Origin: Aggregatilineales bacterium
GTDB taxonomy: Bacteria; Chloroflexota; Anaerolineae; Aggregatilineales; Phototrophicaceae
Assembly: GCA_038328375.1 (NCBI GenBank)
Contig: JBBQLX010000011.1
Coordinates: 1,283-65,282, forward strand
Length of the DNA: 64,000 nt
Direction of reading: 5' to 3'
Positions 1 to 63,716 of this stretch are shown here, in pieces; the stretch's first letter is position 1, and each line of letters starts with the position of its first letter. The notes beneath the pieces were generated by a model. It was not told the origin of the DNA and did no database searches. It saw only the letters and a program-made list of their open reading frames with translations. The position numbers and the translations under genes were made by a program.

Positions 1-792
1 GTAACCCAGCAAGTTGGTCAGCACAAACCATGAATGGCTGCTGCGTTCACCGATGCGGCAGTAAGCCACAATGTCATCAGTCGGCTTCAAACCCTGTTCG
101 CCTTCGTAGATGGCCTTGAGTTCTGCCGCTGTCTTGAAAGTCCCGTCTTCGGCATTCACAGCCTTGGCCCACGGGACACTCTTTGCGCCGGGGATATGAC
201 CGCCTCGTAGAGCGCCTTCTTGGGGGTAATTGGGCATATGAGTCAGCTTGCCACTGTATTCATCGGGGCTGCGGACATCGACCAAGGGCAGACCAGCTTC
301 AATATGCTTCAATACTTGGTCGCGGAAGGCACGGATTTCGCTGTCGTTGCGTTCGGGCGCGGTGTATTGTGTCGCGGGATTGCTCGGTACTTCTTTGGTC
401 AGCTCGCGGCCTTCTTTTTCCCACTTCAAACGACCACCATCGACAATCTTGGCGTTGGTGTGACCAAACAGTCTGAACACCCAATAGGCATAGGTTGCCC
501 ACCAGTTGTTCTTGTCGCCGTAAAATACCAAGGTCGTGTCGGTGGTGATACCAATGCGCGAGGCCAGTTTTTCAAAGCCTTCACGGTTCAGATAATCACG
601 GCGTACTTGGTCGTTGAGGTCATTGGTCCAATCGACCTGCACTGCACCGGGGATGTGTCCCGATGGATAAAGCAGCGGGTCTTCGTTGGACTCAATGATA
701 CGGATGTTAGCATCCTTTAGGTGTTCCGCTAACCACTCGGTTGAAACCAGTACATCGGGGTTGGAATAACCACGGCTTGCAATGTCACTCAT
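1..792 (-). CDS. sseA: Two-domain rhodanese / thiosulfate-3-mercaptopyruvate sulfurtransferase (SseA/CysA family), 3' end runs off the window
   Basis: Absent from ORF track; manual translation [21 protein letters not shown]...[11 protein letters not shown]...[12 protein letters not shown]...VDVRSPDEY...GGHIPGA...[13 protein letters not shown]; RBS AGGAG upstream of ATG 792. Confidence 0.92.
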
Positions 793-870
793 CGTTCTTA
801 ACTCCTCTGTTATCTGCTTATATAATCATATCTTTTCGTATGACGCGGGACAATCCCAGTTGCCATCTCG

Positions 871-903
871 CAAACAAAAAGCCGACCTGCGTAGGTCGGC
901 TTT
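871..903 (-). terminator. Intrinsic terminator, candidate attenuator terminator
   Basis: Perfect 11-bp inverted repeat 878-888/893-903 (AAAGCCGACCT-acgc-AGGTCGGCTTT), followed on the minus strand by TTGTTT. Confidence 0.85.
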
Positions 904-940
904 GGTTGTGCTTAGCCAGATGATTTCTCGCTGAACAACT

Positions 941-1033
941 TTACCCACTCGGACGCAGACGTGCGTATTTCTGTGTACAACACATACACATGGGACAACA
1001 CATCATTACCGGGTAGAGATTAAACTTGTTCAT
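941..1033 (-). CDS. Putative leaderless Cys/Met-rich leader peptide (30 aa, MNKFNLYPVMMCCPMCMCCTQKYARLRPSG)
   Basis: ATG 7 nt downstream of the -10 hexamer, no SD; 5 TGT Cys codons within codons 12-19; lies between a promoter and a terminator upstream of the sulfurtransferase. Confidence 0.75.
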   Translation of the reverse strand: MNKFNLYPVMMCCPMCMCCTQKYARLRPSG

Positions 1034-1040
1034 GGGTTAG

Positions 1041-1069
1041 AATATAGCGGAGGAGCATGATAATGTCAA
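1041..1069 (-). promoter_or_regulatory. Near-consensus sigma70 promoter TTGACA-N17-TATATT driving the leader peptide
   Basis: -35 at 1069-1064, -10 at 1046-1041, exactly 17 nt apart; overlaps the rarA start codon. Confidence 0.75.
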
Positions 1070-2277
1070 CAACCACCCAAGCCCAACCGCTTGCCGACCG
1101 TGTACGCCCAAAATCGCTCGATCAGTTCATCGGGCAGAAACATCTGGTCGGGAAGGGCAAGCCGCTTTATCTCGCCATTACCCAGAACCGTGTTTACTCG
1201 ATGATTTTCTGGGGGCCGCCGGGTGTTGGGAAAACCACACTCGCCCGTATTATTGCGACGGCGACCAACCGTCCATATTTCGAACTGTCGGCAGTGTCGG
1301 CGGGCAAAGCCGAAATCCGTGCGATTGTCGAGCAGGTGAAAGCCGCTGATAAGAAGGATTTGTTTTCGCAGGTCGAAGGCAAACAAAATGGCAGTGCCGT
1401 ACTTTTTTTGGATGAAATTCACCGCTTCAACAAAGCCCAGCAAGATTTCCTGCTGCCGTATATGGAAGATGGCACACTGATTCTGATCGGCGCGACCACT
1501 GAGAATCCCAGCTTTGAGGTGAATTCGGCAGTGCTGTCGCGCAGTCGAGTCTTTGTCCTTGAAGCGCTGACGGTCGATGAAACTAAAGAGATCATCCAAC
1601 AAGGCGCAACCGAACTTGGGATTACCATTGAGCCGGATGCCGAATCGTTCCTTGCAGAGTTTGCCAACGGTGATGCGCGACAGTCGCTCAACCTGCTGGA
1701 AGTCACCGTCGAACTTTACGCCCAAGAATCCAAAATCGTCACGCTGGATAACCTCAAGAATGCCTTGCAATCCAAGTTCCTGCGCTACGACAAAGGGGCG
1801 GAAGAACACTACGACACCATCAGTGCCTTCATCAAGAGTATGCGGGCGAGTAATGTGGATGCCGCGCTTTATTATCTGGCACGGATGGTCAACGGTGGTG
1901 AAGACCCCAAGTTTATTGCCCGTCGCATCGTGATCTTCGCCAGCGAGGATATTGGCAACGCGCAGCCGACCGCATTGGTGGTGGCGAATGAAGTTTTCCG
2001 CGCTGTGGAAACGATTGGCTTGCCGGAGTGTCAGTTCAATCTGGCGCAGGGCGTGGCTTATATGGCGATGGCTCCCAAAGACCGGACTTCCGGTGATGCT
2101 TACTTCGCCGCTCTGGAAGATGTTAAATCGCAGGGCAACCTTCCGATTCCGCTGAACCTCCGCAACGCGCCCACCAAGCTGATGAAAGAACTCGGTTACG
2201 GCAAAGGCTACGAAATGTATTCGACCGATGATTTGCTGCCCGAAGCGCTCAAAGGTCAGAAGTATTATAAGAAGTAG
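1063..2277 (+). CDS. rarA: Replication-associated recombination protein A (AAA+ ATPase, RarA/MgsA)
   Basis: PLADRVRP, Walker A GPPGVGKTT, LFLDEIHRFNKAQQD, IGATTENP, SEDIGNA motifs; RBS GGAGGAG favours ATG 1063. Confidence 0.95.
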   Translation: MSTTTQAQPLADRVRPKSLDQFIGQKHLVGKGKPLYLAITQNRVYSMIFWGPPGVGKTTLARIIATATNRPYFELSAVSAGKAEIRAIVEQVKAADKKDLFSQVEGKQNGSAVLFLDEIHRFNKAQQDFLLPYMEDGTLILIGATTENPSFEVNSAVLSRSRVFVLEALTVDETKEIIQQGATELGITIEPDAESFLAEFANGDARQSLNLLEVTVELYAQESKIVTLDNLKNALQSKFLRYDKGAEEHYDTISAFIKSMRASNVDAALYYLARMVNGGEDPKFIARRIVIFASEDIGNAQPTALVVANEVFRAVETIGLPECQFNLAQGVAYMAMAPKDRTSGDAYFAALEDVKSQGNLPIPLNLRNAPTKLMKELGYGKGYEMYSTDDLLPEALKGQKYYKK

Positions 2278-2280
2278 ATT

Positions 2281-2811
2281 ATGAGTACTGATTTGTTCAC
2301 ATCTGTCGCAAATAAGATTGGCTTTACTGAAGCGGATTTGGCAGCTAATCAGCTGGGTAAGCTGAGTGATAGGCAACGCGGAAAACTAGCCGCCCAACAA
2401 CGTGAATGGCTGATTCCCGCGCTAACTGCAATAGGAGGCGCAACAATACTCATATTTGTTGCTATTGTAGTGAATGACGCAGATACTTCTAATTTGAGAT
2501 TAGCTTTCGCGTTGATTATTGGTGCCTTTTTAGTGTGTTATTTAGCCTATGAATGGGTTAAATGGAGTCGGCTTAAAACTGATTTAACAAATGTAATTGT
2601 TCTTGAATCAAAAGGAAGACTTGAACCAATCACTTATTCGGGGAAAAGTTCTCCTTATTATTTTATTCGTGTCAAAGATGTCAAATTCCCAATTGATGAA
2701 GTTTTATTTAATCTCTTGACTGATCTTGCAGAAGATTATCCGTATTGCGCCGTTTATTATGCGCCACAATCGCATGTTTTGTTGGCGTTTGAACCGCTTG
2801 ATCGAAATTAA
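2281..2811 (+). CDS. Hypothetical membrane protein (2 TM), AT-rich
   Basis: 176-aa ORF 3 nt after rarA; two hydrophobic stretches. Confidence 0.65.
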   Translation: MSTDLFTSVANKIGFTEADLAANQLGKLSDRQRGKLAAQQREWLIPALTAIGGATILIFVAIVVNDADTSNLRLAFALIIGAFLVCYLAYEWVKWSRLKTDLTNVIVLESKGRLEPITYSGKSSPYYFIRVKDVKFPIDEVLFNLLTDLAEDYPYCAVYYAPQSHVLLAFEPLDRN

Positions 2812-2911
2812 ATCAATTACTTTTTCTCTTACCCAACAGCCAATCCCAAGTGGCTTGATCCCAACAGAAATGATCATCATCCGGTCGGTGTCCTTGCGTT
2901 TAATTCTTCTC

Positions 2912-3772
2912 TTAGTCTGCATCATCCCATTCGCCATCTTTGCCTTTTTGCTTCTGCATGACAGGTGCTTCGAGGGTGCGCTTGGCTGCATCGGCTAAAG
3001 CATTGGCAAAGGTTTCGTAGTCTTTCAACGCGAAGGCATAATGAGCCTCGGCAGTTTGAAAGCGGACGAGTCCATTGGCTTGGGGTGCATCCAAGCGTCG
3101 CAGCGCACCGATTTGCTGAACGCTTTCCAACGGGATCAGTTGCTGGACAGCTTCATCATGGAGAATGAGTAGGTAGCGCGGCATGAGGTACAAGTACACC
3201 GCTGATTCCAATGTCCATGCGCCGTGAATATCCTGTTCGGCGGGTTGGGCTTGGACTGGCCCATAGTGGATATAGGGTCGCCTCCGACGGTAGGCTATCA
3301 CCAAATCGGGATCAACCATCAGCTTGAGCGCCCGAATGAAGTCCATCATTTGGACGCGCCCCAACCACAGTTTGACGATGACCCACTCCCGTTTGCGTTC
3401 AACGTGAATCCATAACTCGTTCATGCCGCTGTCATAGTTTTGTGGTCGCCAGAAGCCACGAATATCTTCTGGTGCAAAGCGTATCACGGCTTGAGGTGGC
3501 ATTTTGACCGGATAAACACCGATTTCCTGTTGCGAAAGAGTAATCATGCCGCGCGTCTCTTTGATGGGTTTTCCATTGATAATCTCGATAGCAAAACGGT
3601 TGCCCGATTGTTCAAAGAAGATGATGTCCGGTTGGGTTTCTCGGAGAGGCAATAAGTGTTGATAGACAGCGCGTTGGAGTCGGTACTGTCGAACGCTCCA
3701 CAAGGTCAGCAGGATAATGCCGACAATAAACGTGATCCCAATACCCCAACCAATCATCATCCCTGCGTCCAT
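2912..3772 (-). CDS. Hypothetical protein with N-terminal TM anchor
   Basis: Long ORF; start refined to ATG 3772 (purine-rich RBS); acidic C-terminus. Confidence 0.7.
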   Translation of the reverse strand: MDAGMMIGWGIGITFIVGIILLTLWSVRQYRLQRAVYQHLLPLRETQPDIIFFEQSGNRFAIEIINGKPIKETRGMITLSQQEIGVYPVKMPPQAVIRFAPEDIRGFWRPQNYDSGMNELWIHVERKREWVIVKLWLGRVQMMDFIRALKLMVDPDLVIAYRRRRPYIHYGPVQAQPAEQDIHGAWTLESAVYLYLMPRYLLILHDEAVQQLIPLESVQQIGALRRLDAPQANGLVRFQTAEAHYAFALKDYETFANALADAAKRTLEAPVMQKQKGKDGEWDDAD

Positions 3773-3880
3773 ATTCTTCCCCTTTTGCGTTGAGGCACTA
3801 CGATTTTTCCAAATTAAAAAGGCGCGGTTGTCCACGCCTTCCATTATCTATCGACTATCCACTAAAGACTAACGACTGCT

Positions 3881-4777
3881 TTAGTAGCCCAGCTTCTTGA
3901 GGTAATCACGGTTGCGGCGGGCGCTGCGACGGGGCGCGTCGAGGTCATCGGTCAGCACATCTTGCTCGACAATCGCCCATCCGTCGTATCCCAACGATTC
4001 CATGTGAGACAATATACTGGGGAAGTCCACATTGCCTTTGCCGAGTTCGCAGAAGACTCCAGCTTGTGTGGCCTCACGGTAATTGAGTTTTTCTTTGATG
4101 CACAACTCGCGGATATTGGGGTCACAGTCCTTGAGGTGCAGATAGCGCACCCGTTCGCCGTAAGTTTTGACGGCTTCCAAGGCATCGCCACCCGCGTATT
4201 GATAATGTCCTGTGTCCAAGCACAGCCCGACCAAATCAGAATCGGTGCGATCCATCAACTGACGAGTTTCTTCAGGGGTTTCAACATAACCGGCGCAGTG
4301 ATGGTGGAACATGATCTTCAAGCCATATTCATCAAATACACGGCGGGCAATGCGGTTCACGCCTGCCGCGAACACATCCCATTGGGCAGGTGTGAGAGCT
4401 GACCCTTTACGTCGCCCCGCCTGTGCGAAGAGTTCTGGAACGCTGCCGTTATCATCCGCTAGAACGATGACTTTTGCGCCGCAGGCCGCCAGCAACTTGC
4501 CCACCTGCAAGGCATGTGCCTCGCCTTCGGCATGGGCGTTGGCATCCACCAGTTTGACAGGCACATAGGACGAGAGCAGTTGCAAGCCCCGCTTATCGAG
4601 TTCCGGTTGCAGCACGGCGGGATCCGTGGGCAAGTAACCCCAAGGGCCTAGCTCAATACCTGTGTAACCTGTGTCGACGATTTCATCCAATACCCGTTCA
4701 TACGGATATTTGGGTTCAATATCTTTAAATTCATAAATGCCCCAGCTCACCGGAGCGTTCCCCATGCGAATAGTCAT
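3881..4777 (-). CDS. iolE: Sugar-phosphate isomerase TIM barrel, myo-inosose-2 dehydratase (IolE/MocC)-like
   Basis: GNAPVSWG, HHHCAGYVET, LCLDTGH, YLHLKD, FCELGKG, IVEQD motifs. Confidence 0.8.
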   Translation of the reverse strand: MTIRMGNAPVSWGIYEFKDIEPKYPYERVLDEIVDTGYTGIELGPWGYLPTDPAVLQPELDKRGLQLLSSYVPVKLVDANAHAEGEAHALQVGKLLAACGAKVIVLADDNGSVPELFAQAGRRKGSALTPAQWDVFAAGVNRIARRVFDEYGLKIMFHHHCAGYVETPEETRQLMDRTDSDLVGLCLDTGHYQYAGGDALEAVKTYGERVRYLHLKDCDPNIRELCIKEKLNYREATQAGVFCELGKGNVDFPSILSHMESLGYDGWAIVEQDVLTDDLDAPRRSARRNRDYLKKLGY

Positions 4778-5433: not shown

Positions 5434-6615
5434 CTATAACAACTGTGTTTCAATGATTTGTTTAGCTCTGCTCAACCTTTTTTCCACATTTCCTTTACTT
5501 GCTGTGGCACGTTCAGCACTTTCGGTGAATTCCTTATCTTGTTTGAGCTTATCTATCGAGTTTGGCGTGATTTTTCCCTGAACTAATGATTGTTCTTGAA
5601 ATGCCTGTGTACAGGCGGCAACAAAAACCGACTCAAATATAGTAATACTAAAACGCTGAGTGGTACCTAAAAATGCATCTGGTGGCAATTCTGAACAACT
5701 ATGAAGGAAAGAAATGAAAAGCTGTTCAAAATATGATATTGCTGTGTTGGTGTACTTTTTCGCATGGCGCGAAAAATCATTCAAAAATTTTACCATTGAC
5801 GAACTATATGAATTACCTGTTATAAGCATAGCAAATCCACGCAGCATAAATTCAATGTCTTTGAGGTTTAAATCAGGATGTAAAATGCCGACTAGTCGGC
5901 GCCAATCTTTTGACATGTTTACCCGATATAACATGTCATAAAAGTGAGAATGATAGAGACTTGTTCTTATTTCTTGAGGGCGTAAATTAACGCCACCTGA
6001 ATTAAGCCTGTTGAATATTTCGTAAATGGCGGAGTCGTCGTCTGCCGGTGCCACTTGCTTTACTATAATGCTTCGAATTGGACGCAAATCCAAAGTGGAT
6101 TGATAATCACCTAAAGTTGAGTAGTTTAAACCATGAAACTTATTTAGTTGGTGAGGTATATTTGTTGGTAAACTCAAATTAAATTTAGTGAAAAACGCAT
6201 CATCTTGAAGTGTTTCTAGAGGTATTATGCCGTTTTCCTCGAAAATGCGACGCAGCTCGGCACGTTTTTCTTTTTTGGGAAATCTTTGTTGGACAAAATA
6301 GTATAACGACATCAATCGCTGTTGCCCATCTATTACCGAGAATTTGTTTCTTGCTTCCTCGTACAGGAATATTTGAGGAATCGGCAACCCGATTATTAAT
6401 GACTCTATTAGTTTTGATGCTCGCTTAATATCCCAAACATAATTTCTTTGGAATCCGGGTATATGTATTGTTCCACGATCTATATAGGAAAATAAAGTGC
6501 TTACATTAAAGTCATTAGGGGAAGCTGTAATATCATATTCATGAATAGGGTAATCAATTGGTTCATCATCGGCTTCATCATCATACCAATTATTGGGATT
6601 TGTATCCGCGTTCAT
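5434..6615 (-). CDS. DUF262 (GmrSD_N / ParB-like) domain protein
   Basis: PGFQRNYVW, IDGQQRL, IFNRLNSGG motifs; start refined to ATG 6615 (RBS AAGGAG). Confidence 0.88.
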   Translation of the reverse strand: MNADTNPNNWYDDEADDEPIDYPIHEYDITASPNDFNVSTLFSYIDRGTIHIPGFQRNYVWDIKRASKLIESLIIGLPIPQIFLYEEARNKFSVIDGQQRLMSLYYFVQQRFPKKEKRAELRRIFEENGIIPLETLQDDAFFTKFNLSLPTNIPHQLNKFHGLNYSTLGDYQSTLDLRPIRSIIVKQVAPADDDSAIYEIFNRLNSGGVNLRPQEIRTSLYHSHFYDMLYRVNMSKDWRRLVGILHPDLNLKDIEFMLRGFAMLITGNSYSSSMVKFLNDFSRHAKKYTNTAISYFEQLFISFLHSCSELPPDAFLGTTQRFSITIFESVFVAACTQAFQEQSLVQGKITPNSIDKLKQDKEFTESAERATASKGNVEKRLSRAKQIIETQLL

Positions 6616-6651
6616 ACATTCTCCTTGAGTACACAATTGTAATGTATCTGA

Positions 6652-6682
6652 AAATAACCTCGTGAACTAAACGAGGTTATTT
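6652..6682 (-). terminator. Hairpin, probable terminator downstream of the ABC operon
   Basis: AAATAACCTCGT-N7-ACGAGGTTATTT perfect 12-bp stem. Confidence 0.65.
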
Positions 6683-6788
6683 GTTTCCCACTATACTAAA
6701 TTACTATGATACTACAATCTGTGTTCTAAGATTGTTGTGGATTTAATGTTAACCCATATTTATTCGTAGAGTTTTGTTTACTCTTAAA

Positions 6789-7658
6789 TTATTTGTCCCG
6801 CGTCAGCGCAAATCCACGCAGGAAACTTTCTTGTAGGAACATGAAGACGATCAACGGCGGAATCGAGGCGATTACGGCGGCTGCCATTGCCACACCCCAA
6901 TTACCAGCATCCAGCGCGTTGACGGTAATGCCTTTCAAGGCCACCTGAACCAGTTGCCGCGTGTTGTCGTTGATAATCAGCAGAGGCCATAAATATTGGT
7001 TCCACACGCCGATAAACTGGATCATCGCCAGTGCACCGATGATATTCCATGACAGCGGAATCAAGATGAGCCACAGGTATTGGACTGGCCCTGCACCATC
7101 AATTTGTGCAGCATCCGCCAACTCCGATGGAATATTGGAGAAGTGCTGCCTGAACAACAGTGTTCCGGTGGCGCTTGCCATAAACGGTACGATCAGCGCT
7201 TGCGCGGTGTTCGTCCAGCCCAATTGTCCCATCATCCGAAATAACGCCACAATCAAAATATCGGTCGGCATCATCAAGGTTAGCAGCACAAAGATAAATA
7301 AGGGGCCGCGCAGTGGAAAGCGGAAGTAAACAAATGCCATACCCGCCAACATCGAGGTTGCGGTCTTCGCTAGCGTAACGGCTACCGCCACCAAAATCGT
7401 GTTGCCCATCAGACGCACTAGATTGCTGCTGTTCCATGCCTCTGAGAAATTGGTGAGGATCTGGTCACCCGGCATCAAATTCGGCGGATAAGCCATAATC
7501 TGTCCCAAGTTCTGGGTGGATTTAATAATTGTGAAGACCATCGGGAAGGCCACGAAGAAGCAGATCACGCTCAGGATAATGTGTGATAAATACTTGGGAC
7601 GTGACCGATGTTTTTTTGGTGTTACTTTTACGGCAGTTGTCGCAATTGCGCTATGCAT
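6789..7658 (-). CDS. Carbohydrate ABC permease, UgpE-like
   Basis: EAA-like loop ELADAAQIDGAG, WNQYLWPL; ATG overlaps the upstream gene's stop. Confidence 0.85.
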   Translation of the reverse strand: MHSAIATTAVKVTPKKHRSRPKYLSHIILSVICFFVAFPMVFTIIKSTQNLGQIMAYPPNLMPGDQILTNFSEAWNSSNLVRLMGNTILVAVAVTLAKTATSMLAGMAFVYFRFPLRGPLFIFVLLTLMMPTDILIVALFRMMGQLGWTNTAQALIVPFMASATGTLLFRQHFSNIPSELADAAQIDGAGPVQYLWLILIPLSWNIIGALAMIQFIGVWNQYLWPLLIINDNTRQLVQVALKGITVNALDAGNWGVAMAAAVIASIPPLIVFMFLQESFLRGFALTRDK

Positions 7659-8574
7659 TGTAGGTAGTCCTCTGGTCGCCACTCCGAAATTGTACAAGTG
7701 TGAGCAGCGCCACCAGCGCGAACAGCATTACCGATTGCGCGGCTGCGAGTCCGGTATTGTGGTTGGTCTGCAAATCTTGGTACAGGTTATAAATAAGCAC
7801 AGTGGTCGAGTTTCTTGGCCCCGGCCCTGCCAGTACGTCAATCGTCCCGAAAATATCAAAGAACGAATAGGTCAGGTTGGTAATGATCAAGAACAGGGTG
7901 AAAGGGGAGAGCAGTGGGAATATAATTTTCCAGAAGCGTGTCCATGAGTTCGCCCCATCAATCGAGGCGGCTTCCAGCAGTTCACCACCGATGTTTTGTA
8001 ACCCTGCCAAATAAAAAATGACGTTGTAACCGAGGTTCTTCCAGATGGATGCCACAATCACCAGCATTGGAGTCAGGATCGGGTCGCCCAACCAATTCGG
8101 TCGCGTATGGAAAACATTACCCCACGCATAATTGATAACCCCTACGACCGGATTGAACATGAACAAGAACACTACACCTACAATCGCGGGTGAAATGGCA
8201 TAAGGCCAAATCAGCAGGGTGCGGTAGATACGGACACCTGTGATCTTCTGGTTCGCCAGCACCGCGATGCCCATCGAAATCGCGAGGCCGCCGATCACAA
8301 TCGCGGCGGAATAGGCCAGAGAACGCGCCAGCACAATCAGATATTGCCCCTTAAAGAGAATCGTACCCGCGTCTGTTCGTGAGATTTGCGGGTCAAGCAA
8401 CCGCGAGTAATTATCAAAACCAATATAGGTGAGCGTAATCCCGTTAGGCGCTGCTTTATTGAAACTCAAGCTGAATGTACTGATAATGGGGTAATAGAGG
8501 AATAAGACCAGAATAATCAGCGTCGGTAGTAACAATAGGTAAGGCAGCCATCGATTACGAAAAATAGCCTGCAT
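7651..8574 (-). CDS. Carbohydrate ABC permease, UgpA-like
   Basis: WKNLGYNVIFYLAGLQ, EAASIDGA motifs. Confidence 0.87.
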   Translation of the reverse strand: MQAIFRNRWLPYLLLLPTLIILVLFLYYPIISTFSLSFNKAAPNGITLTYIGFDNYSRLLDPQISRTDAGTILFKGQYLIVLARSLAYSAAIVIGGLAISMGIAVLANQKITGVRIYRTLLIWPYAISPAIVGVVFLFMFNPVVGVINYAWGNVFHTRPNWLGDPILTPMLVIVASIWKNLGYNVIFYLAGLQNIGGELLEAASIDGANSWTRFWKIIFPLLSPFTLFLIITNLTYSFFDIFGTIDVLAGPGPRNSTTVLIYNLYQDLQTNHNTGLAAAQSVMLFALVALLTLVQFRSGDQRTTYNA

Positions 8575-8722
8575 CGTGGGCTTTCCTTGCTCAAAGTTAG
8601 AACTAAATGTTGGACGAAAGCCGGCTCACTCCCCGGCGTTGCTGATCGCAATAAAACATCATAGAGGCAGATCAGTGATGACCTGCCTCTATAAAATTAC
8701 AGGTTACAAATCTACACGATAC

Positions 8723-10087
8723 CTAGCTGGCAGGTGTAGCTTCTGGTGTCAAACGACTGTTGTAGTCGGCAATCGCCGCATCCGCTTTGGACTTGGCATC
8801 CGCGAGTACCGTGTCGATGTCTTCGCCACTGGTGACACTCTGGATCGCCTGTTCCATGATGTCGCGAATCTGGGGGAACGCACCCATCAACGCGCCTGCG
8901 GTTGCGCTGCTGCTGTTGACGGCATTCAACTGGTCAACGGCGGTCTTTTGACCGGGGTTGGCGGTGAAATAACCTTCAGCGGTCAGGGCATCCTGTGCGC
9001 TCTTGGTGATGGGCATGTAACCGGTGCCTTTGTGCCATACAGTCATTTGCTCAGGAGCCATCAACCACATGATAAATTCAGTTGCGGCCTTGGTTTCTTC
9101 TTCAGGGTGACCTGCACCAATCCATAGGCTGGCACCACCGACAATTACGCCTGCGCGTTCCATGTCGGCATTCGCCGGGAAGAAACCCGTACCCAGTTGG
9201 AAGCCCGAAGTCTCTGCACCTGTCTTGAAGGTGTTCAGTGCGCCAGTGCTTTCCACGATCATCGCGGCCTGCTTGGAGATGAAAATCTGGTTTGCACCCT
9301 GATTGTCATGCAGCTTGCCGGTGTAAGTCCAATAGCCCTTGTCGTTCAAGTCTTTCCAGAAGGTCATAATGTTCTTGCCGGCATCGCTGGTGATATTGGT
9401 TTCGGTGGCGCGGTCAGCACGACCATTGCCATTGTTCGCCAATTCTTGGCCTTGCAGCGCCATCCATTGTTCGAAGTACCAGCCGTAAACCTGCATACTG
9501 ATGCAGTAGGGCGCGGCATTCGAAGCCTTGATCTTTTCGCAGTCGGCTTCCAATTCTTGCCAAGTTGACGGTGGTTTTTCGGGATCAAGTCCGGCTGCGG
9601 TGAACATATCCTTGTTGTAATAGAACAAAGGAGTTGAGTTGTTCCAAGGAATGGAATTCAACTTGCCGCCAACCGTGAAGTAGTTCAGCACGGGGGCAGC
9701 CACATCACCCTTAATTTGGGTAACTTGGTCGGCGCTGAAAGCGGTTTCGGCTGGGATGAAGAAACCGGAGTCAATCGCCAACGGGGTTCCAAGGTCGAAA
9801 ATCTGGGCGATGTTCGGGCCTTGGCCTTGACCAGCAGCCTGAATAACCGCGTTCAGGGTTTCGTTGTAATTGCCTTTATTTTGCTCGTTCACATGTACAG
9901 CGGTTTGTGACTCGTTGTATTTAGCGACCAAATCGGTGACGACTTTGCCGTTGTTACCCGACATCGCGTGCCAGAACGAAACTTCGACTGGAGTCTGTGC
10001 CAGTGCTGGTGAGAATCCCAGTGCTGCGATCAGCACCAGTACGCTCATTAGACCGATCAATAAACGTCTTTTCTGCATTTTGTCCAT
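8723..10087 (-). CDS. ABC substrate-binding protein, UgpB-like (sn-glycerol-3-phosphate type)
   Basis: Signal peptide, FWHAMSG, PWNNSTPLFYYNKD, VIVGGASLW, WHKGTGYMP. Confidence 0.85.
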   Translation of the reverse strand: MDKMQKRRLLIGLMSVLVLIAALGFSPALAQTPVEVSFWHAMSGNNGKVVTDLVAKYNESQTAVHVNEQNKGNYNETLNAVIQAAGQGQGPNIAQIFDLGTPLAIDSGFFIPAETAFSADQVTQIKGDVAAPVLNYFTVGGKLNSIPWNNSTPLFYYNKDMFTAAGLDPEKPPSTWQELEADCEKIKASNAAPYCISMQVYGWYFEQWMALQGQELANNGNGRADRATETNITSDAGKNIMTFWKDLNDKGYWTYTGKLHDNQGANQIFISKQAAMIVESTGALNTFKTGAETSGFQLGTGFFPANADMERAGVIVGGASLWIGAGHPEEETKAATEFIMWLMAPEQMTVWHKGTGYMPITKSAQDALTAEGYFTANPGQKTAVDQLNAVNSSSATAGALMGAFPQIRDIMEQAIQSVTSGEDIDTVLADAKSKADAAIADYNSRLTPEATPAS

Positions 10088-10326
10088 AACTCCTTATATC
10101 ATCAATAGGGTTTTTACGCCCTTTAACCAACAAATTTATTGTAGAGATGCCTGATTAAAAAAAGAGGGCATCACCGTTAAGTATTTTTAACCCAACAGCT
10201 TAAATTGTGTTATATGAGCATCTCCTTCATCAGGATTTAAACTTCTCTTAACAATTATCTATGATACCACTTCTCATGGAGAATCCAAATCAGCCACTTG
10301 GCTAGTTTTTGAGGCAAATTCTGGAT

Positions 10327-10650
10327 TTAGCTTTGCAACCGTCTGATAATGAGTTGTATATCGCCCACCGTTCCCAAGCCTGCCATCACCGCGACCGAGA
10401 ACACGATGAACATTGCAACTCCTTCGCCAAAAGTCGTTGCGCCGCCCAACTTTAACCCAGCAATAATCGCCACGCCCCAAAACACCATTGCTGGCAAACC
10501 TGCTACGAAGATATATGCCCATTTGCCCAAATCATCGGGTATATCAACGTGTCGGTAGCCAATGGTTTTGGGTCGCCGTCCAATGAGCAGCAGCGCCAAT
10601 ACATGTAATAACTCATGTGGTGGCCCGAAAATTTTGTAGAGAATTTCCAT
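10327..10650 (-). CDS. Small membrane protein with HExxH motif (DUF3267-like putative zinc peptidase)
   Basis: PHELLHV near the N-terminus, AGLP motif, hydrophobic helices. Confidence 0.55.
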   Translation of the reverse strand: MEILYKIFGPPHELLHVLALLLIGRRPKTIGYRHVDIPDDLGKWAYIFVAGLPAMVFWGVAIIAGLKLGGATTFGEGVAMFIVFSVAVMAGLGTVGDIQLIIRRLQS

Positions 10651-10730
10651 AGAGTGGTTATATTGAAGTGCTTCTTCTGCTTAGAGGTGAATTTCTTTCC
10701 TCGTTTAAAGTGGAAGCCAAGGGTGTGGTT

Positions 10731-11594
10731 TTAATCCCGCTCGATCAGGTAACGCGTCAACCACAGCACCAGTCCCATAATGAGGATCGGTAAGCCCAGC
10801 GGCAGCACAAAATCGACTGTGAAGCGCATCGGCCAACTCATCGGAACGAGTCGAACCAGATTGAGACATAAAAAGTAAAACCCACCAACAATTAACGTTC
10901 CGGTTGTTCCTGCTGATCGTGTTCGTAACGCCGTACCCATCAGAATGCCGATCATGGCGACCATAAATGGTTCCAGCAGCATCCTTATAATCGACACGCC
11001 CAGCCCCAGCACGATTGCCACCCGCGACAGTACCGGATTCTGGTCAAGCGGCCACAGCGTCCCATAATACGAAATGAGTAAAGGCGTACTCAGCAGCGCG
11101 ACACCCAACATCAGCAAGCCCAAATCCTCGACCTGTCGCCACATCGCGGCAGCAGCCTTACTCGCAATAATATCTCTTAAAGAGTAAGGAGTTGTACGCA
11201 GCACAGTTAAGGTGTCGTTCTGCAACTCGTCGGTCATCGAGCGCGCACCGGCACTGCTGACGATCACCAGTACCCGCGCGTAAACAACAACTGCAAAGGG
11301 CAGCAGGATGATAGCGGCTGTCACGGTTGGCAGCGCGAGTTCAATCAGAAAGGGGAAGGGCAGCGTGAGAGCAATCAAAATCGCTTGGACAATGAATGCT
11401 TGCCGCAAGAAACCCACTTCGGGCAGCATCGTTCGCCATGCCATACCCAACTGGCGACGCACCAATGGGTTAGATCGCCGCGCCCAGTACGGAAGCCCCG
11501 TGTCAATATCCTTGCCACGCTGGATTATCCGAATGAGTTGAAGTTCACTGCTGGTGTGTTCCACCGTGACCTCGTATGATTGATTTCTAATCAT
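10731..11594 (-). CDS. ABC-2-type permease-like membrane protein
   Basis: About 6 TM helices; DELQNDTLTVLRTTP...IIASK pattern. Confidence 0.6.
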   Translation of the reverse strand: MIRNQSYEVTVEHTSSELQLIRIIQRGKDIDTGLPYWARRSNPLVRRQLGMAWRTMLPEVGFLRQAFIVQAILIALTLPFPFLIELALPTVTAAIILLPFAVVVYARVLVIVSSAGARSMTDELQNDTLTVLRTTPYSLRDIIASKAAAAMWRQVEDLGLLMLGVALLSTPLLISYYGTLWPLDQNPVLSRVAIVLGLGVSIIRMLLEPFMVAMIGILMGTALRTRSAGTTGTLIVGGFYFLCLNLVRLVPMSWPMRFTVDFVLPLGLPILIMGLVLWLTRYLIERD

Positions 11595-57986: not shown

Positions 57987-58022
57987 AAAGCAGGATCAGC
58001 GTTCAATGCTGATCCTGCTTAA
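57987..58022. terminator. Bidirectional terminator between convergent genes
   Basis: AAGCAGGATCAGC-gttcaat-GCTGATCCTGCTT. Confidence 0.78.
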
Positions 58023-58053: not shown

Positions 58054-59586
58054 TTAGCCGGCAAATTGTGAGTCTAGCGCACGGATACCAGCCAGAATAT
58101 CCGCGTCCTTACCATGACCCAGTTCCAACCATTCGAGGTTCAGTGTCATGCCGTCCTGCTTAACTTTGGCGGCATACAATGTACCCGCGCTCAAGTCGCC
58201 AGCGGTATCCGCCACGAACTTGAACATCACGCGATCCGTACCATCATCACCGAAGTAAACCGTTTTGTTGTCAGGCATCACGACACCGACTTCCTTGCTG
58301 AAGCGTCCCATCACGTAATGCTTGATAATCTGCGTACCGCTGTCCGATGATACCAGTTCAACGTTGTAGCCTTGGTCGAACGGGTTAGCGGCTTTTCCAG
58401 TCAGCGCCGTTAGTCCAGCGCCTTGCTCTTCAACCCAGTACTGCCAATCTTCTTCATTGTCCGCCGGATATTCTTCTGAAGTCATTGCTGTACCCCAAGG
58501 CGTAACGCTTGCACCGCAGTTGTTGGTCGTTCCGTTGACAGGAATAAAATCAACCATTTCTCCCTTAACAGCCGACCAGTCACTGTTTGCACCACGTTCA
58601 AGCCATAGCTTGCTCACACCGCCCACACCGCATTCAATATTGGTGTACAGGACAGCTTTGCCGTCTGTGGTCGGAACAAACATATTTCCATCGGGATCAT
58701 TGCAAACGGTCAAAACGGATTTGTCGTGAGCAACAATCGCGCCCAAAACAGGAGCATCGGCTGCTGAACCGGGGAATACGTCACCAACGCGACCCAAAAC
58801 TTGATATTCGCCAGCCGCCAGTTTCACGGTCGTCATGTCGGCTTCAGTGCTTGGGACAGCCAAAGGTTCGAAGCTGTCGCCAGCCACATAGCCCTTGATG
58901 ACCCCAATCGTTCCCACATTGAAAGGAGCTGTGTTGGTCTCATCTGGATGTTGAACATTCATGAACAGTGTGCCATCGGGGGTAATATGCAGACCAGTAA
59001 CTTCTGCACCCAATGGAACGGTAGCGAAGCGCTTGAGTTCTTTGCTGGTTGCATCCCACATCCACAGGACGTTGTTCTTGTGTCCGTCGGTGTCTTCACC
59101 GATCCATAGGTTGCCCTTAGGATCAACATACAGGTTGTCGGGGCCGGCGATGGCATCCACTGCGCACGCATTATCGGCATTTGCCTCATCTAAGGCCCCG
59201 CCCATAATGACCGGAGTCACAGATGCAATGTTCATATTCGCGTCCAGTTCACCCATGAATATGGCACCGCAGTCTACCTTGTCCATCTGAATATCACCTT
59301 CGCCGTCGGTCATCCCTTTGGCAAGGTTACTAATGGCATAATAGACTTTCATATTCTGAGCATCTAAAGCCGTCCACTCCAGCTTGCGCCATTCAGCGGT
59401 TGCACCTTTGGAAATCGCGTAATTGCGGCTGTCGATGAACGCGGCATAAGGATTATCCATTGGCACACTTGGAACGGGCGGAATCGCGGGTGTTGCTTCT
59501 TGGGTTGCGTCCTGTGCTTTTCCCGCTGATACAATTATCAGCATTGAAAGGACTAAAAGACTTACGACCAAAAGACGTTTATTCAT
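58054..59586 (-). CDS. phoX: PhoX/DUF839-family alkaline phosphatase, circularly permuted, Sec-type signal
   Basis: TNIE, NNCGASVTPWG...SEE, GRFSKE, GDD, RKLE, PDN, GED, GAEVTG, NVQHP motifs; start refined to ATG 59586. Confidence 0.82.
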   Translation of the reverse strand: MNKRLLVVSLLVLSMLIIVSAGKAQDATQEATPAIPPVPSVPMDNPYAAFIDSRNYAISKGATAEWRKLEWTALDAQNMKVYYAISNLAKGMTDGEGDIQMDKVDCGAIFMGELDANMNIASVTPVIMGGALDEANADNACAVDAIAGPDNLYVDPKGNLWIGEDTDGHKNNVLWMWDATSKELKRFATVPLGAEVTGLHITPDGTLFMNVQHPDETNTAPFNVGTIGVIKGYVAGDSFEPLAVPSTEADMTTVKLAAGEYQVLGRVGDVFPGSAADAPVLGAIVAHDKSVLTVCNDPDGNMFVPTTDGKAVLYTNIECGVGGVSKLWLERGANSDWSAVKGEMVDFIPVNGTTNNCGASVTPWGTAMTSEEYPADNEEDWQYWVEEQGAGLTALTGKAANPFDQGYNVELVSSDSGTQIIKHYVMGRFSKEVGVVMPDNKTVYFGDDGTDRVMFKFVADTAGDLSAGTLYAAKVKQDGMTLNLEWLELGHGKDADILAGIRALDSQFAG

Positions 59587-59797
59587 TCGTTCAAACCCTC
59601 TATATAATTGGACATTTTTGGAAAATGCGAAGCACAAACCTTACAACCATCACTCTAGTCGTGGTTTATTAAGTCGTTTTTTGCTGTGCTTTAAGAAAAG
59701 GGGGGGATATATTAGCTTTTCTTGATATTTTAAACGACTAGGCGGCGCACTGAACCTACGTCGATAAGTTATGCATATTATGATTTCTTATTATCGA

Positions 59798-60271
59798 TCA
59801 GTGAAGAATTGTTTTCCTTAACGCAAGCAAGTGTTGGTATTGCCAATCTTTTTCTTTTTCGACCGCTGCATCAGCATCAGCGGTTTCGGTGGCTCTGTGG
59901 ATTGCCTGTAAGCCATAAATGGCAGCACCAATAGAATGACTCGGCACATGCGCCGTTGCCACTGCTTGGCCTGCTGCACGGGCAGCCGAACGAGCCGCAT
60001 TATCTTCGCCCACATCGCGGGCTGCCGCATGAGAGTCAAGCGAAGCCTTGCGTATTTCCGCCATCCTAAATACCCCTGTATTGATCCATTTCTGAAGGGC
60101 TTCAATGGCTTGTCGAGGGCGTTTGTCATCAGGATATTTGTCTTCAAAATACGGCAGAATCCGCTCTGCACAATCAATCGCCCACATAGCCAATATTTTG
60201 TGGTCAGTTTTGCTCACGAGATCTTCAAACTCAGCTTTGTAGTGAGCCAACGAGAATTTGGATTTTTTCAT
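59798..60271 (-). CDS. Imm5-like putative immunity protein
   Basis: WAIDCAERILPYFE...DKRPRQAI, ARAAGQAVATAH pattern. Confidence 0.7.
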   Translation of the reverse strand: MKKSKFSLAHYKAEFEDLVSKTDHKILAMWAIDCAERILPYFEDKYPDDKRPRQAIEALQKWINTGVFRMAEIRKASLDSHAAARDVGEDNAARSAARAAGQAVATAHVPSHSIGAAIYGLQAIHRATETADADAAVEKEKDWQYQHLLALRKTILH

Positions 60272-60407
60272 TTTGTTCTTCCTAATCCACATTATTGCCA
60301 GTAGGCTGAGAAATGCCGATACCTATTGGGTAGTGAAACCTCGAAGGTGATTAATTCCATGCTACTATTGCTATAATAGCATTTGTAAAAAGCTGTGAGG
60401 TATTCAA

Positions 60408-63254: not shown

Positions 63255-63716
63255 GTGAGTCATTCACAACGGTTAGTAGCGGCTGAAACACGCCGAAAAA
63301 ATTGGCGTATCGCACTCGGTACAATTATCCTCATTACCGTACCGTTTTACTGTGCCGGATTTTTCCTCTGGGGAACCGCTCCGCAGCGCACCCCGACAGC
63401 ATTTCCAACGACTACACCCGGCGGTCCGCAGGTGGTTACCGCTACACCATTACAACCGACGGTTACGCCACTTGGTGGATTTTTCCCCAGCGTAACGCCG
63501 CTTGGTATTACGCCATTTTTCCCAACGCAGGATAATGGTGGCTTCCCGACTCAGGTCTTGCCGACATTAGTGCTGCCAACACGTTTCTTATCACCTACGC
63601 CGCAGATCATTCTGCCCACTAATCCGCCACCACCGACAAACGTGCCTTTGCCCACCAATCCGCCACCACCGACGCAGCCCGCGATTACCAATACGCCGCT
63701 GCCTTTTGATAACTAA
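63255..63716 (+). CDS. Membrane-anchored Pro/Thr-rich protein
   Basis: RBS GGAGG, TM ending PFYCAGFFLWGTA, long PT tail. Confidence 0.72.
   Translation: MSHSQRLVAAETRRKNWRIALGTIILITVPFYCAGFFLWGTAPQRTPTAFPTTTPGGPQVVTATPLQPTVTPLGGFFPSVTPLGITPFFPTQDNGGFPTQVLPTLVLPTRFLSPTPQIILPTNPPPPTNVPLPTNPPPPTQPAITNTPLPFDN

Follow-up and report, generated by a model that had tools for sequence, protein, structure and literature searches.

A predicted Sec-exported, circularly permuted member of the PhoX family encoded by an Aggregatilineales bacterium

PhoX ranks among the chief enzymes with which microbes free phosphate from organic matter; the algal extracellular PhoX of Volvox is internally duplicated. The structurally characterised enzyme is the Fe/Ca alkaline phosphatase of P. 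fluorescens (PDB 3ZWU, 4A9V and 4AMF), a member of the superfamily described by the Pfam model PF05787. The conserved motifs of canonical PhoX follow one another in the order NHE, NNC..PWGT..EE, GRF.HE, GDD, GAT.R.E, PDG, GxExTG and QHP. PhoX is treated as a protein exported through twin-arginine translocation (Tat), which has been argued to allow iron loading before export (PMC12594817, PMC11098088). A second Fe/Ca phosphatase with a PhoX-like active site, Psip1 (PMM1416), has been described from Prochlorococcus and Synechococcus (PMC11098088). Here we describe a PhoX-family gene from an Aggregatilineales bacterium (Chloroflexota, Anaerolineae; assembly GCA_038328375.1), located in a stretch of 64,000 nucleotides of contig JBBQLX010000011.1 (positions 1,283 to 65,282; hereafter the window). 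The gene (58054..59586, minus strand; 510 residues plus stop, ATG start, PF05787 match), which we call the query, does not follow the canonical motif order but a rotated one, denoted type A. We read its product as a six-bladed propeller of the PhoX superfamily, exported by the general secretory (Sec) pathway, circularly permuted, and most likely an extracytoplasmic Fe/Ca-dependent phosphomonoesterase; the rough probability that we attach to this reading as a whole is 0.72. The permutation itself, relative to characterised PhoX, is almost certain.

PF05787 matched the query with 133.4 bits (E = 1.9e-38, against a cut-off of 24), and the match fell into two stretches in swapped order, as a first, sequence-only reading of this DNA had expected. 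When the genome was searched with the model, the C-terminal part of the protein corresponded to model positions 150-330 and the N-terminal part to positions 326-515 (77 and 57.8 bits). A phmmer search against PDB sequences paired query residues 350-495 with 3ZWU 172-354 and query residues 54-222 with 3ZWU 372-560. Reciprocally, when canonical PhoX genes of other Chloroflexota were searched with a profile of the query family, the two matches came in reversed order; in one example genome (G081), profile positions 340-452 came first, followed by 43-207.

Doubling the sequence removed the break. A hidden Markov model (HMM) of canonical PhoX, built from Chloroflexota genes, was run with hmmsearch against the doubled mature query and returned one domain (HMM 300-606) that extended across the junction. 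When the doubled family alignment was compared with the canonical alignment in hhalign, a single collinear alignment of 506 columns was obtained (template 5-638 of 642, P = 100%, E = 6.3e-41), while the undoubled alignment gave two pieces, Q156-502 on T5-428 and Q21-236 on T404-638. The region missed by phmmer, residues ~236-349 with the motifs SFEPLAVP, YQVLGRVGD, PDGNMF and TNIEC, was placed by hhalign on the canonical N-terminal region, where the counterparts are F.pi, vpeGy..l.rwGdp, gyN.DF and vNHEy. The query chain is equivalent to canonical ~405-640 followed by canonical ~62-405 (L003 numbering), and the break lies at ~354/367 of 3ZWU. The permutation stands against the objection that a single collinear alignment to PhoX might exist: without doubling, none was obtained over the full length, and Foldseek aligned only 316 columns of 3ZWU (TM-score 0.31), a partial match that is expected because Foldseek is a sequential aligner and was applied to a permutant. 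Nor does the arrangement appear to have been documented before, as no paper describing a permuted PhoX was found in the open-access text searched; databases label type A proteins 'DUF839' or 'alkaline phosphatase PhoX'.

The proposal that the canonical C-terminal third had been moved to the N-terminus was borne out. The moved block comprises residues 48-235 (58882..59445, minus strand), equivalent to 3ZWU 372-560, PF05787 326-515 and hhalign template 404-638, and carries GAT..K.E, MTDGEGDIQ, the cysteines C106 and C141, PDN, WIGEDTD, RFATVPLGAEVTG, NVQHP and a final strand, TIGVIKG. Residues 236-510 (58057..58881, minus strand) correspond to the N-terminal and middle parts of canonical PhoX (3ZWU 172-354, PF05787 150-330, hhalign template ~65-428); this block opens with the four motifs placed by hhalign and continues with NNCG..TPWGT..SEE, GRFSKE, GDDG, KFVAD, GTLYAAK, EWLELG and terminal helices. 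All motifs named in the sequence-only reading were present, in the order it gave, in the 510-residue translation, but its stop directly after EWLELG was misplaced: another 21 residues follow before the stop.

An AlphaFold2 model computed from a 48-sequence alignment was confident (predicted local distance difference test, pLDDT, 94; predicted template-modelling score 0.90) and contained ~24 strands in six groups. Its top fold matches in Foldseek were the six-bladed propellers Drp35, DFPase, gluconolactonase and strictosidine synthase, and the predicted fold of the query is a six-bladed beta-propeller.

Candidate metal ligands were mapped by laying family conservation on the 3ZWU alignment. The positions of 3ZWU and their query equivalents are N178/C179 (N356/C357), E193/E194 (E371/E372), E251 (E410), R269 (R428), E273 (E432), D291/D292 (D447/D448), E387 (E70), D411 (D94), D479 (D150), D484 (D155), D494 (D165), E532 (E195) and Q550/H551 (Q212/H213); within the query family every one of them is either invariant or conserved to at least 90%. 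Cys179 is reportedly an Fe ligand of PhoX. Since the candidate Cys, Glu, Asp, Gln and His residues of the PhoX metal site are retained, extracytoplasmic Fe/Ca-dependent phosphomonoesterase is the most likely activity; we consider it fairly probable that the product is an Fe/Ca phosphatase. Two further cysteine pairs, both missing from classical PhoX, may form disulfides: C106/C141, conserved across the subfamily, and C295/C319, present only in type A.

The N-terminus carries a Sec-type signal peptide (residues 1-24; 59515..59586, minus strand) with predicted cleavage at AGKA|QD. The signal, MNKRLLVVSLLVLSMLIIVSAGKA|Q, has K3 and R4, a hydrophobic core of 17 residues and an AxA motif; the twin-arginine signal of canonical PhoX was not found in it, and the translation confirmed the earlier remark that the MNKRLL start has no twin arginine. 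Low pLDDT over residues 1-40 fits a signal peptide followed by a linker. By a simple regular expression, 127 of 133 full-length type A proteins had neither an RR-type signal nor a lipobox, the remainder being RR-like (3) or lipobox-like (3); type A signals typically read …A.A|Q(D/E). Close relatives with the canonical order were assigned to Sec (40) or lipoprotein (34) signals, with only 6 loosely RR-like, whereas all eight classical Chloroflexota PhoX proteins examined had Tat motifs of the RRxSRRxxLK type. Because the canonical-order relatives are mostly Sec- or lipoprotein-exported, Sec export is a trait of the subfamily and is not tied to the permutation, which it appears, from these signals, to predate. 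Two other accounts of the signal were rejected: co-evolution of Sec export with the permutation, given that canonical-order close relatives are also Sec- or lipoprotein-exported, and a switch to Sec forced by a missing Tat system, given that the source genome has two tatC genes.

Type A is a widespread, uncharacterised clade and is not private to the query gene. More than 1,500 database proteins matched the query; the best 120 are ~500 residues long and collinear over 91-100% of it, except for one truncated entry of 314 residues, and more than 130 full-length collinear homologues were collected. When one genome was scanned for each species, the query arrangement turned up in no fewer than 198 species representatives. 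Eighty of these relatives were kept, all of them full-length, and they belong to Anaerolineae, Caldilineales, Aggregatilineales, Ardenticatenia, Truepera/Deinococcus, Desulfobulbales, SAR324 and Symbiobacteriaceae; isolates among them include Desulfopila aestuarii DSM 18488, Desulfogranum japonicum DSM 18378 and D. mediterraneum DSM 13871. A homologue 86% identical to the query occurs in an Aggregatilineales metagenome-assembled genome (MAG). The distribution is patchy: of 401 genomes sampled from the phylum, 1 had type A, namely the genome of the window itself, and of 401 from the class, 7 had it; 13 other genomes from the family to which the window belongs had none. Canonical Tat-type PhoX occurred in ~10% of the phylum sample.

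A search run exhaustively over 1.84 billion representatives returned 1,803 matches, 271 of them at E <= 1e-30. The 150 nearest 50%-identity representatives were scored with four segment HMMs (S1, query residues 48-178; S2, 183-235; S3a, 255-372; S3b, 398-500), which resolved several arrangements: type A, S1-S2-S3, in 8 representatives; type B, S2-S3-S1, in 19 (plus 3 partial); canonical, S3-S1(-S2), in 89; tandem duplicates, S3-S1-S2-S3-S1-S2, in ~5 or more; and type E, S3b-S1-S2-S3a, in one (P0197). The query has the full type A architecture, a signal peptide followed by S1 (48-178), S2 (183-235) and S3 (255-505) in ~500 residues, which is monophyletic. In a quick-method tree of concatenated S1, S3a and S3b (348 columns, 132 units), support by the Shimodaira-Hasegawa-like approximate likelihood ratio test was 98 for type A as one clade, 100 for type B as one clade and 99 for A and B as sisters, apart from the canonical and tandem forms. 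The query nests with Aggregatilineales and Caldilineales members of type A, and the single 'canonical' row within the type B clade (P0163) is an N-truncated type B protein. Types A and B are both part of a PhoX-like subfamily with Sec or lipoprotein export, to which the tandem duplicates and a rare third permutant belong as well. The latter, P0197/P0286, is a protein of 612 residues with a signal peptide, recovered in two independent Logan assemblies; after the signal its chain sets in midway through the catalytic half (…GYPVEV…GRLAWE…), continues through S1 and S2 and ends just past …PWGSHLGGEEY….

Type B (P0147, P0149, P0151, P0154-P0157, P0160-P0162, P0164, P0167-P0169, P0171, P0179, P0183 and P0195) includes proteins of Haloplanus and Haloarchaeobius (both labelled 'PhoX') and of Alcanivorax and Paracoccaceae. 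The sequence-only reading had named a haloarchaeal type that starts at the GAEVTG block and had proposed the query as a further, different permutation. Such a type exists, as type B, and its cut point differs; the query gene is therefore a distinct permutation. One type B protein, P0162, carries a fused N-terminal PhoD-like domain. The tandem-duplicated proteins (P0143, P0144, P0146, P0152 and P0153) are 1160-1335 residues long. In P0144 the two units show no difference in the columns that align, possibly an effect of assembly. Three further proteins (P0159, P0170 and P0248; 1060-2200 residues) form a separate, Bacteroidota-looking group with 2-4 repeated units and a C-terminus resembling that of type IX secretion substrates.

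The tandem proteins embed the query order across the junction of their repeats: residues 544-1062 of P0144 correspond to query residues 48-499 in one stretch. The internal seam of the query, …GVIKGYVAGD-SFEPLAVPSTEAD…, mirrors the tandem inter-repeat junction, …GYIGPFP…LSFAKTAVPVTDED…. This is the signature expected of a permutation that arose by duplication and two-sided truncation. The proposed course of events is as follows. In canonical PhoX, the N- and C-termini would meet within one blade. A Sec- or lipoprotein-type PhoX-like gene was most likely duplicated in tandem, and both outer ends were then lost, leaving the canonical C-terminal ~190 residues in front of the canonical N-terminal and middle ~270 residues. 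The blade that is split in the canonical chain would thereby have become covalently continuous in the query (…NVQHP…TIGVIKG-YVAGD-SFEPLAVP…YQVLGRVGD), and the new termini would sit between two blades, in a helical or insert region at the surface (canonical ~354/367, 3ZWU numbering). The type A rotation is fixed in the whole clade, and type B is another rotation of the same circle. From the strand pattern, type A may lack closure of the propeller by strand exchange (the 'velcro'), and the query protein would be folded and metallated after Sec export.

Several points weigh against the preferred reading, that of a permuted Fe/Ca-dependent phosphomonoesterase. The claim that all expected Fe/Ca ligands are present held where conserved acidic residues, Cys, Gln and His are concerned but not for R385 of PhoX, which is a lysine (K68) in the query; R385 and D292 are active-site residues of PhoX (PMC11098088). 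NCBIfam models gave no meaningful match to the query, and no pho or pst genes were found among its neighbours. The blade assignment, the adjacency of the termini and the spatial grouping of the ligands were read from secondary structure and alignment only, and the tree is unrooted, so that it does not fix the direction of evolution or the ancestral order within A, B and the canonical forms. A further point comes from the cytochrome linkage of one large type A subclade: part of the family, at least, may have a redox-related role, and it becomes less certain that every type A protein is a simple phosphatase.

The neighbourhoods of 62 type A loci with flanks were counted. Genes for c-type cytochromes adjoined the type A gene in 29 of them, a cytochrome b/b6 of ~500 residues in 21 and a Rieske protein in 15, and Pfam confirmed these identities. 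A compact unit, consisting of a Rieske 2Fe-2S protein, the ~500-residue cytochrome b and two c-type cytochromes, one dihaem and one multihaem, was found directly beside type A genes in Anaerolineae/Ardenticatenia (Chloroflexota), Desulfobulbales, SAR324 and a Myxococcota-labelled MAG (loci L053, L055, L057, L058, L062, L068, L069, L072, L076, L079, L081, L086, L091, L096, L098, L100, L101, L103 and L104). It lies at about 6500-11000 or 500-4700 in each locus, in same-strand, convergent or divergent orientation and amid unrelated outer flanks. In six loci of Anaerolineae, including Ca. Flexifilum affinis (L074, L078, L106, L109, L110 and L111), a c-type cytochrome of ~180-280 residues lies directly downstream on the same strand (~6566-7440, plus). 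One type A protein of 624 residues (P0141) has an N-terminal extension with the haem motif CILCH (CxxCH).

From these associations it can be argued that the permuted PhoX-fold protein is not primarily a phosphatase but a redox-linked periplasmic or extracellular enzyme, or a partner of Rieske/cytochrome b, with an iron centre that is used or maintained through c-type cytochromes. The spread of the linkage over several phyla and in varied orientations favours this account, as do the small downstream cytochromes, the CxxCH extension of P0141 and the extra cysteines C295 and C319 of type A, not found in canonical PhoX. However, on the type A tree the cytochrome-linked genes concentrate in one large subclade that is not the query's. 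Neither the query subclade (9 rows, Aggregatilineales/Caldilineales) nor the Deinococcota subclade showed any cytochrome linkage, and the linkage therefore has no direct bearing on the query gene. No cytochrome module was found beside the query gene itself, and the only Rieske/cytochrome b cluster of the source genome is a generic one on a separate contig, C100. That cluster (C100:11200-14975; Rieske, cytochrome b and cytochrome c) is 40-45% identical to the PhoX-linked modules of Anaerolineae and is without the multihaem cytochrome. The candidate ligand set of the phosphatase type is also fully kept, and part of the linkage may reflect transfer en bloc. We consider a primarily redox role unlikely. 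We are similarly doubtful of a wider scheme in which the subfamily forms a complete permutation series (canonical, tandem and at least three rotations, A, B and E) and type A was recruited, in several phyla, as the soluble partner of a dedicated module of Rieske protein, cytochrome b and di- and multihaem cytochromes c. If it were true, a PhoX-type Fe-Ca-oxo centre would be a participant in quinone-linked electron transfer or would rely on it, perhaps for redox assembly or upkeep of the ferric cofactor outside the cell under anoxia, perhaps in a new oxidoreductase activity.

Far less probable is that the query is an unrelated six-bladed propeller, convergent with PhoX, in which repeated blades were misread as a permutation. 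Propeller blades are repetitive, cross-blade matches can mimic rotations, and Psip1 has itself been described as convergent with PhoX (PMC11098088). Yet the matches observed here were not blade-periodic: each half of the query found only its cognate half of PF05787 and 3ZWU, the non-repeating catalytic motifs NNC..PWGT..EE, GRF..E, GDD and QHP were matched, the doubled comparison ran as one alignment over all 506 columns at P = 100%, and equal-scoring alignments in several blade registers were not seen. The chance that the swapped order is an artefact, whether a misassembly, a fused fragment of two genes or the remnant of a decaying tandem gene, is close to nil and already refuted by family-wide conservation, for although tandem PhoX-like genes with the same order across their junction do exist, the open reading frame (ORF) has its own ribosome-binding site, signal peptide and terminator, the AlphaFold2 model is compact and confident, and the more than 130 homologues of ~500 residues align end to end at 41-88% identity, with isolates such as Desulfopila aestuarii DSM 18488, Desulfogranum japonicum DSM 18378 and Deinococcus arenicola included.

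A ribosome-binding site of the permuted PhoX-like gene, GAGGG (59596..59600, minus strand), lies 9 nucleotides before the ATG, and the closest homologues share the MNKRL start with the query; for both reasons the ATG at 59586 is the likely start and a TTG at 59637 is unlikely. An intrinsic terminator after the stop codon (57988..58020, minus strand) has a stem of 13 bp with 7 G-C pairs, followed by a T-run. A promoter-like site, TTCACT-17-CATAAT (59777..59805, minus strand), is only a weak match to the consensus. The neighbouring genes encode an Amidohydro_3 protein (opposite strand), a GNAT protein, a CN-hydrolase, an Imm5-like protein and a radical-SAM/GNAT protein; as they are unrelated to it, the gene looks monocistronic and without pho/pst context. 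The Imm-5-like putative immunity gene (PF21805, E = 5.5e-44; 59798-60292, minus strand) lies directly upstream. Further along the window, an ORF of 153 residues (63255-63716, plus strand) has a transmembrane start, a Pro/Thr-rich repeat tail (PTNPPPPTN…) and no Pfam match. A search of the source genome returned no other PF05787 gene and no PhoD gene.

New here are the type A clade, its sister relation to type B, and the Sec/lipoprotein subfamily that the two share with tandem duplicates and a third permutant. In nature, propellers with a circularly permuted chain are in themselves not rare. Environmental surveys count PhoX by PF05787 or K07093 models and often keep only sequences with a Tat signal (PMC12594817). 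Such filters would miscount or discard a widespread, Sec-exported permuted clade, and collinear alignments and primers derived from canonical PhoX would break on it. Within the subfamily, sister clades of two rotations occur together with tandem duplicates that have survived, and the Fe2Ca3-oxo cofactor of the enzyme is unusually complex. The subfamily could thus serve as a test bed for the course of a permutation, for the need of a propeller for 'velcro' closure, and for the question whether cofactor assembly, cytoplasmic with Tat export, can move outside with Sec. The cross-phylum Rieske/cytochrome b linkage of one subclade, if functional, would point to unknown redox biology of the PhoX fold.

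Compared with known systems, the query shares the PF05787 superfamily with P. fluorescens PhoX at an identity of only ~25%. It has the equivalent of residues 372-560 first and of ~60-354 second; the P. fluorescens enzyme is a Tat substrate with R385, whereas the query has a Sec signal and lysine. The query is also ~80-130 residues shorter, since inserts are missing. Psip1 resembles the query, as predicted here, in being a propeller with the PhoX ligand set and in having lysine in place of R385 and, in MED4, a Sec-type signal peptide (PMC11098088). Placing it in the query's subfamily on the shared R385K exchange was not supported: its authors report no detectable conserved domain (PMC11098088), which sets it apart by description from a clear PF05787 member, and its lysine, K432, implies the canonical order, in contrast to K68 of the query. 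Type B proteins, such as those of Haloarchaeobius sp. (WP_435332876.1), Haloplanus (MFB6107322.1) and Alcanivorax sp. S6407 (WP_246970137.1), are ~40% identical to the query and share its motif set, with GAT.EF.K.EG and the cysteines C106/C141 among its elements. Unlike the query, they start with RFATxPxGAEVTG…QHP and end with IGEDT..H.NN.LW, just the last ~50 residues of the canonical chain having moved to the front, and their signals are mixed, Tat in haloarchaea and lipoprotein or Sec in bacteria. The tandem duplicates belong to the same subfamily and have a similar junction (…GY(I/V)G…SF..(V/L)P..(T/S).(E/D)…), but they consist of two complete units in canonical order, whereas the query is a single unit from which both outer parts are gone.

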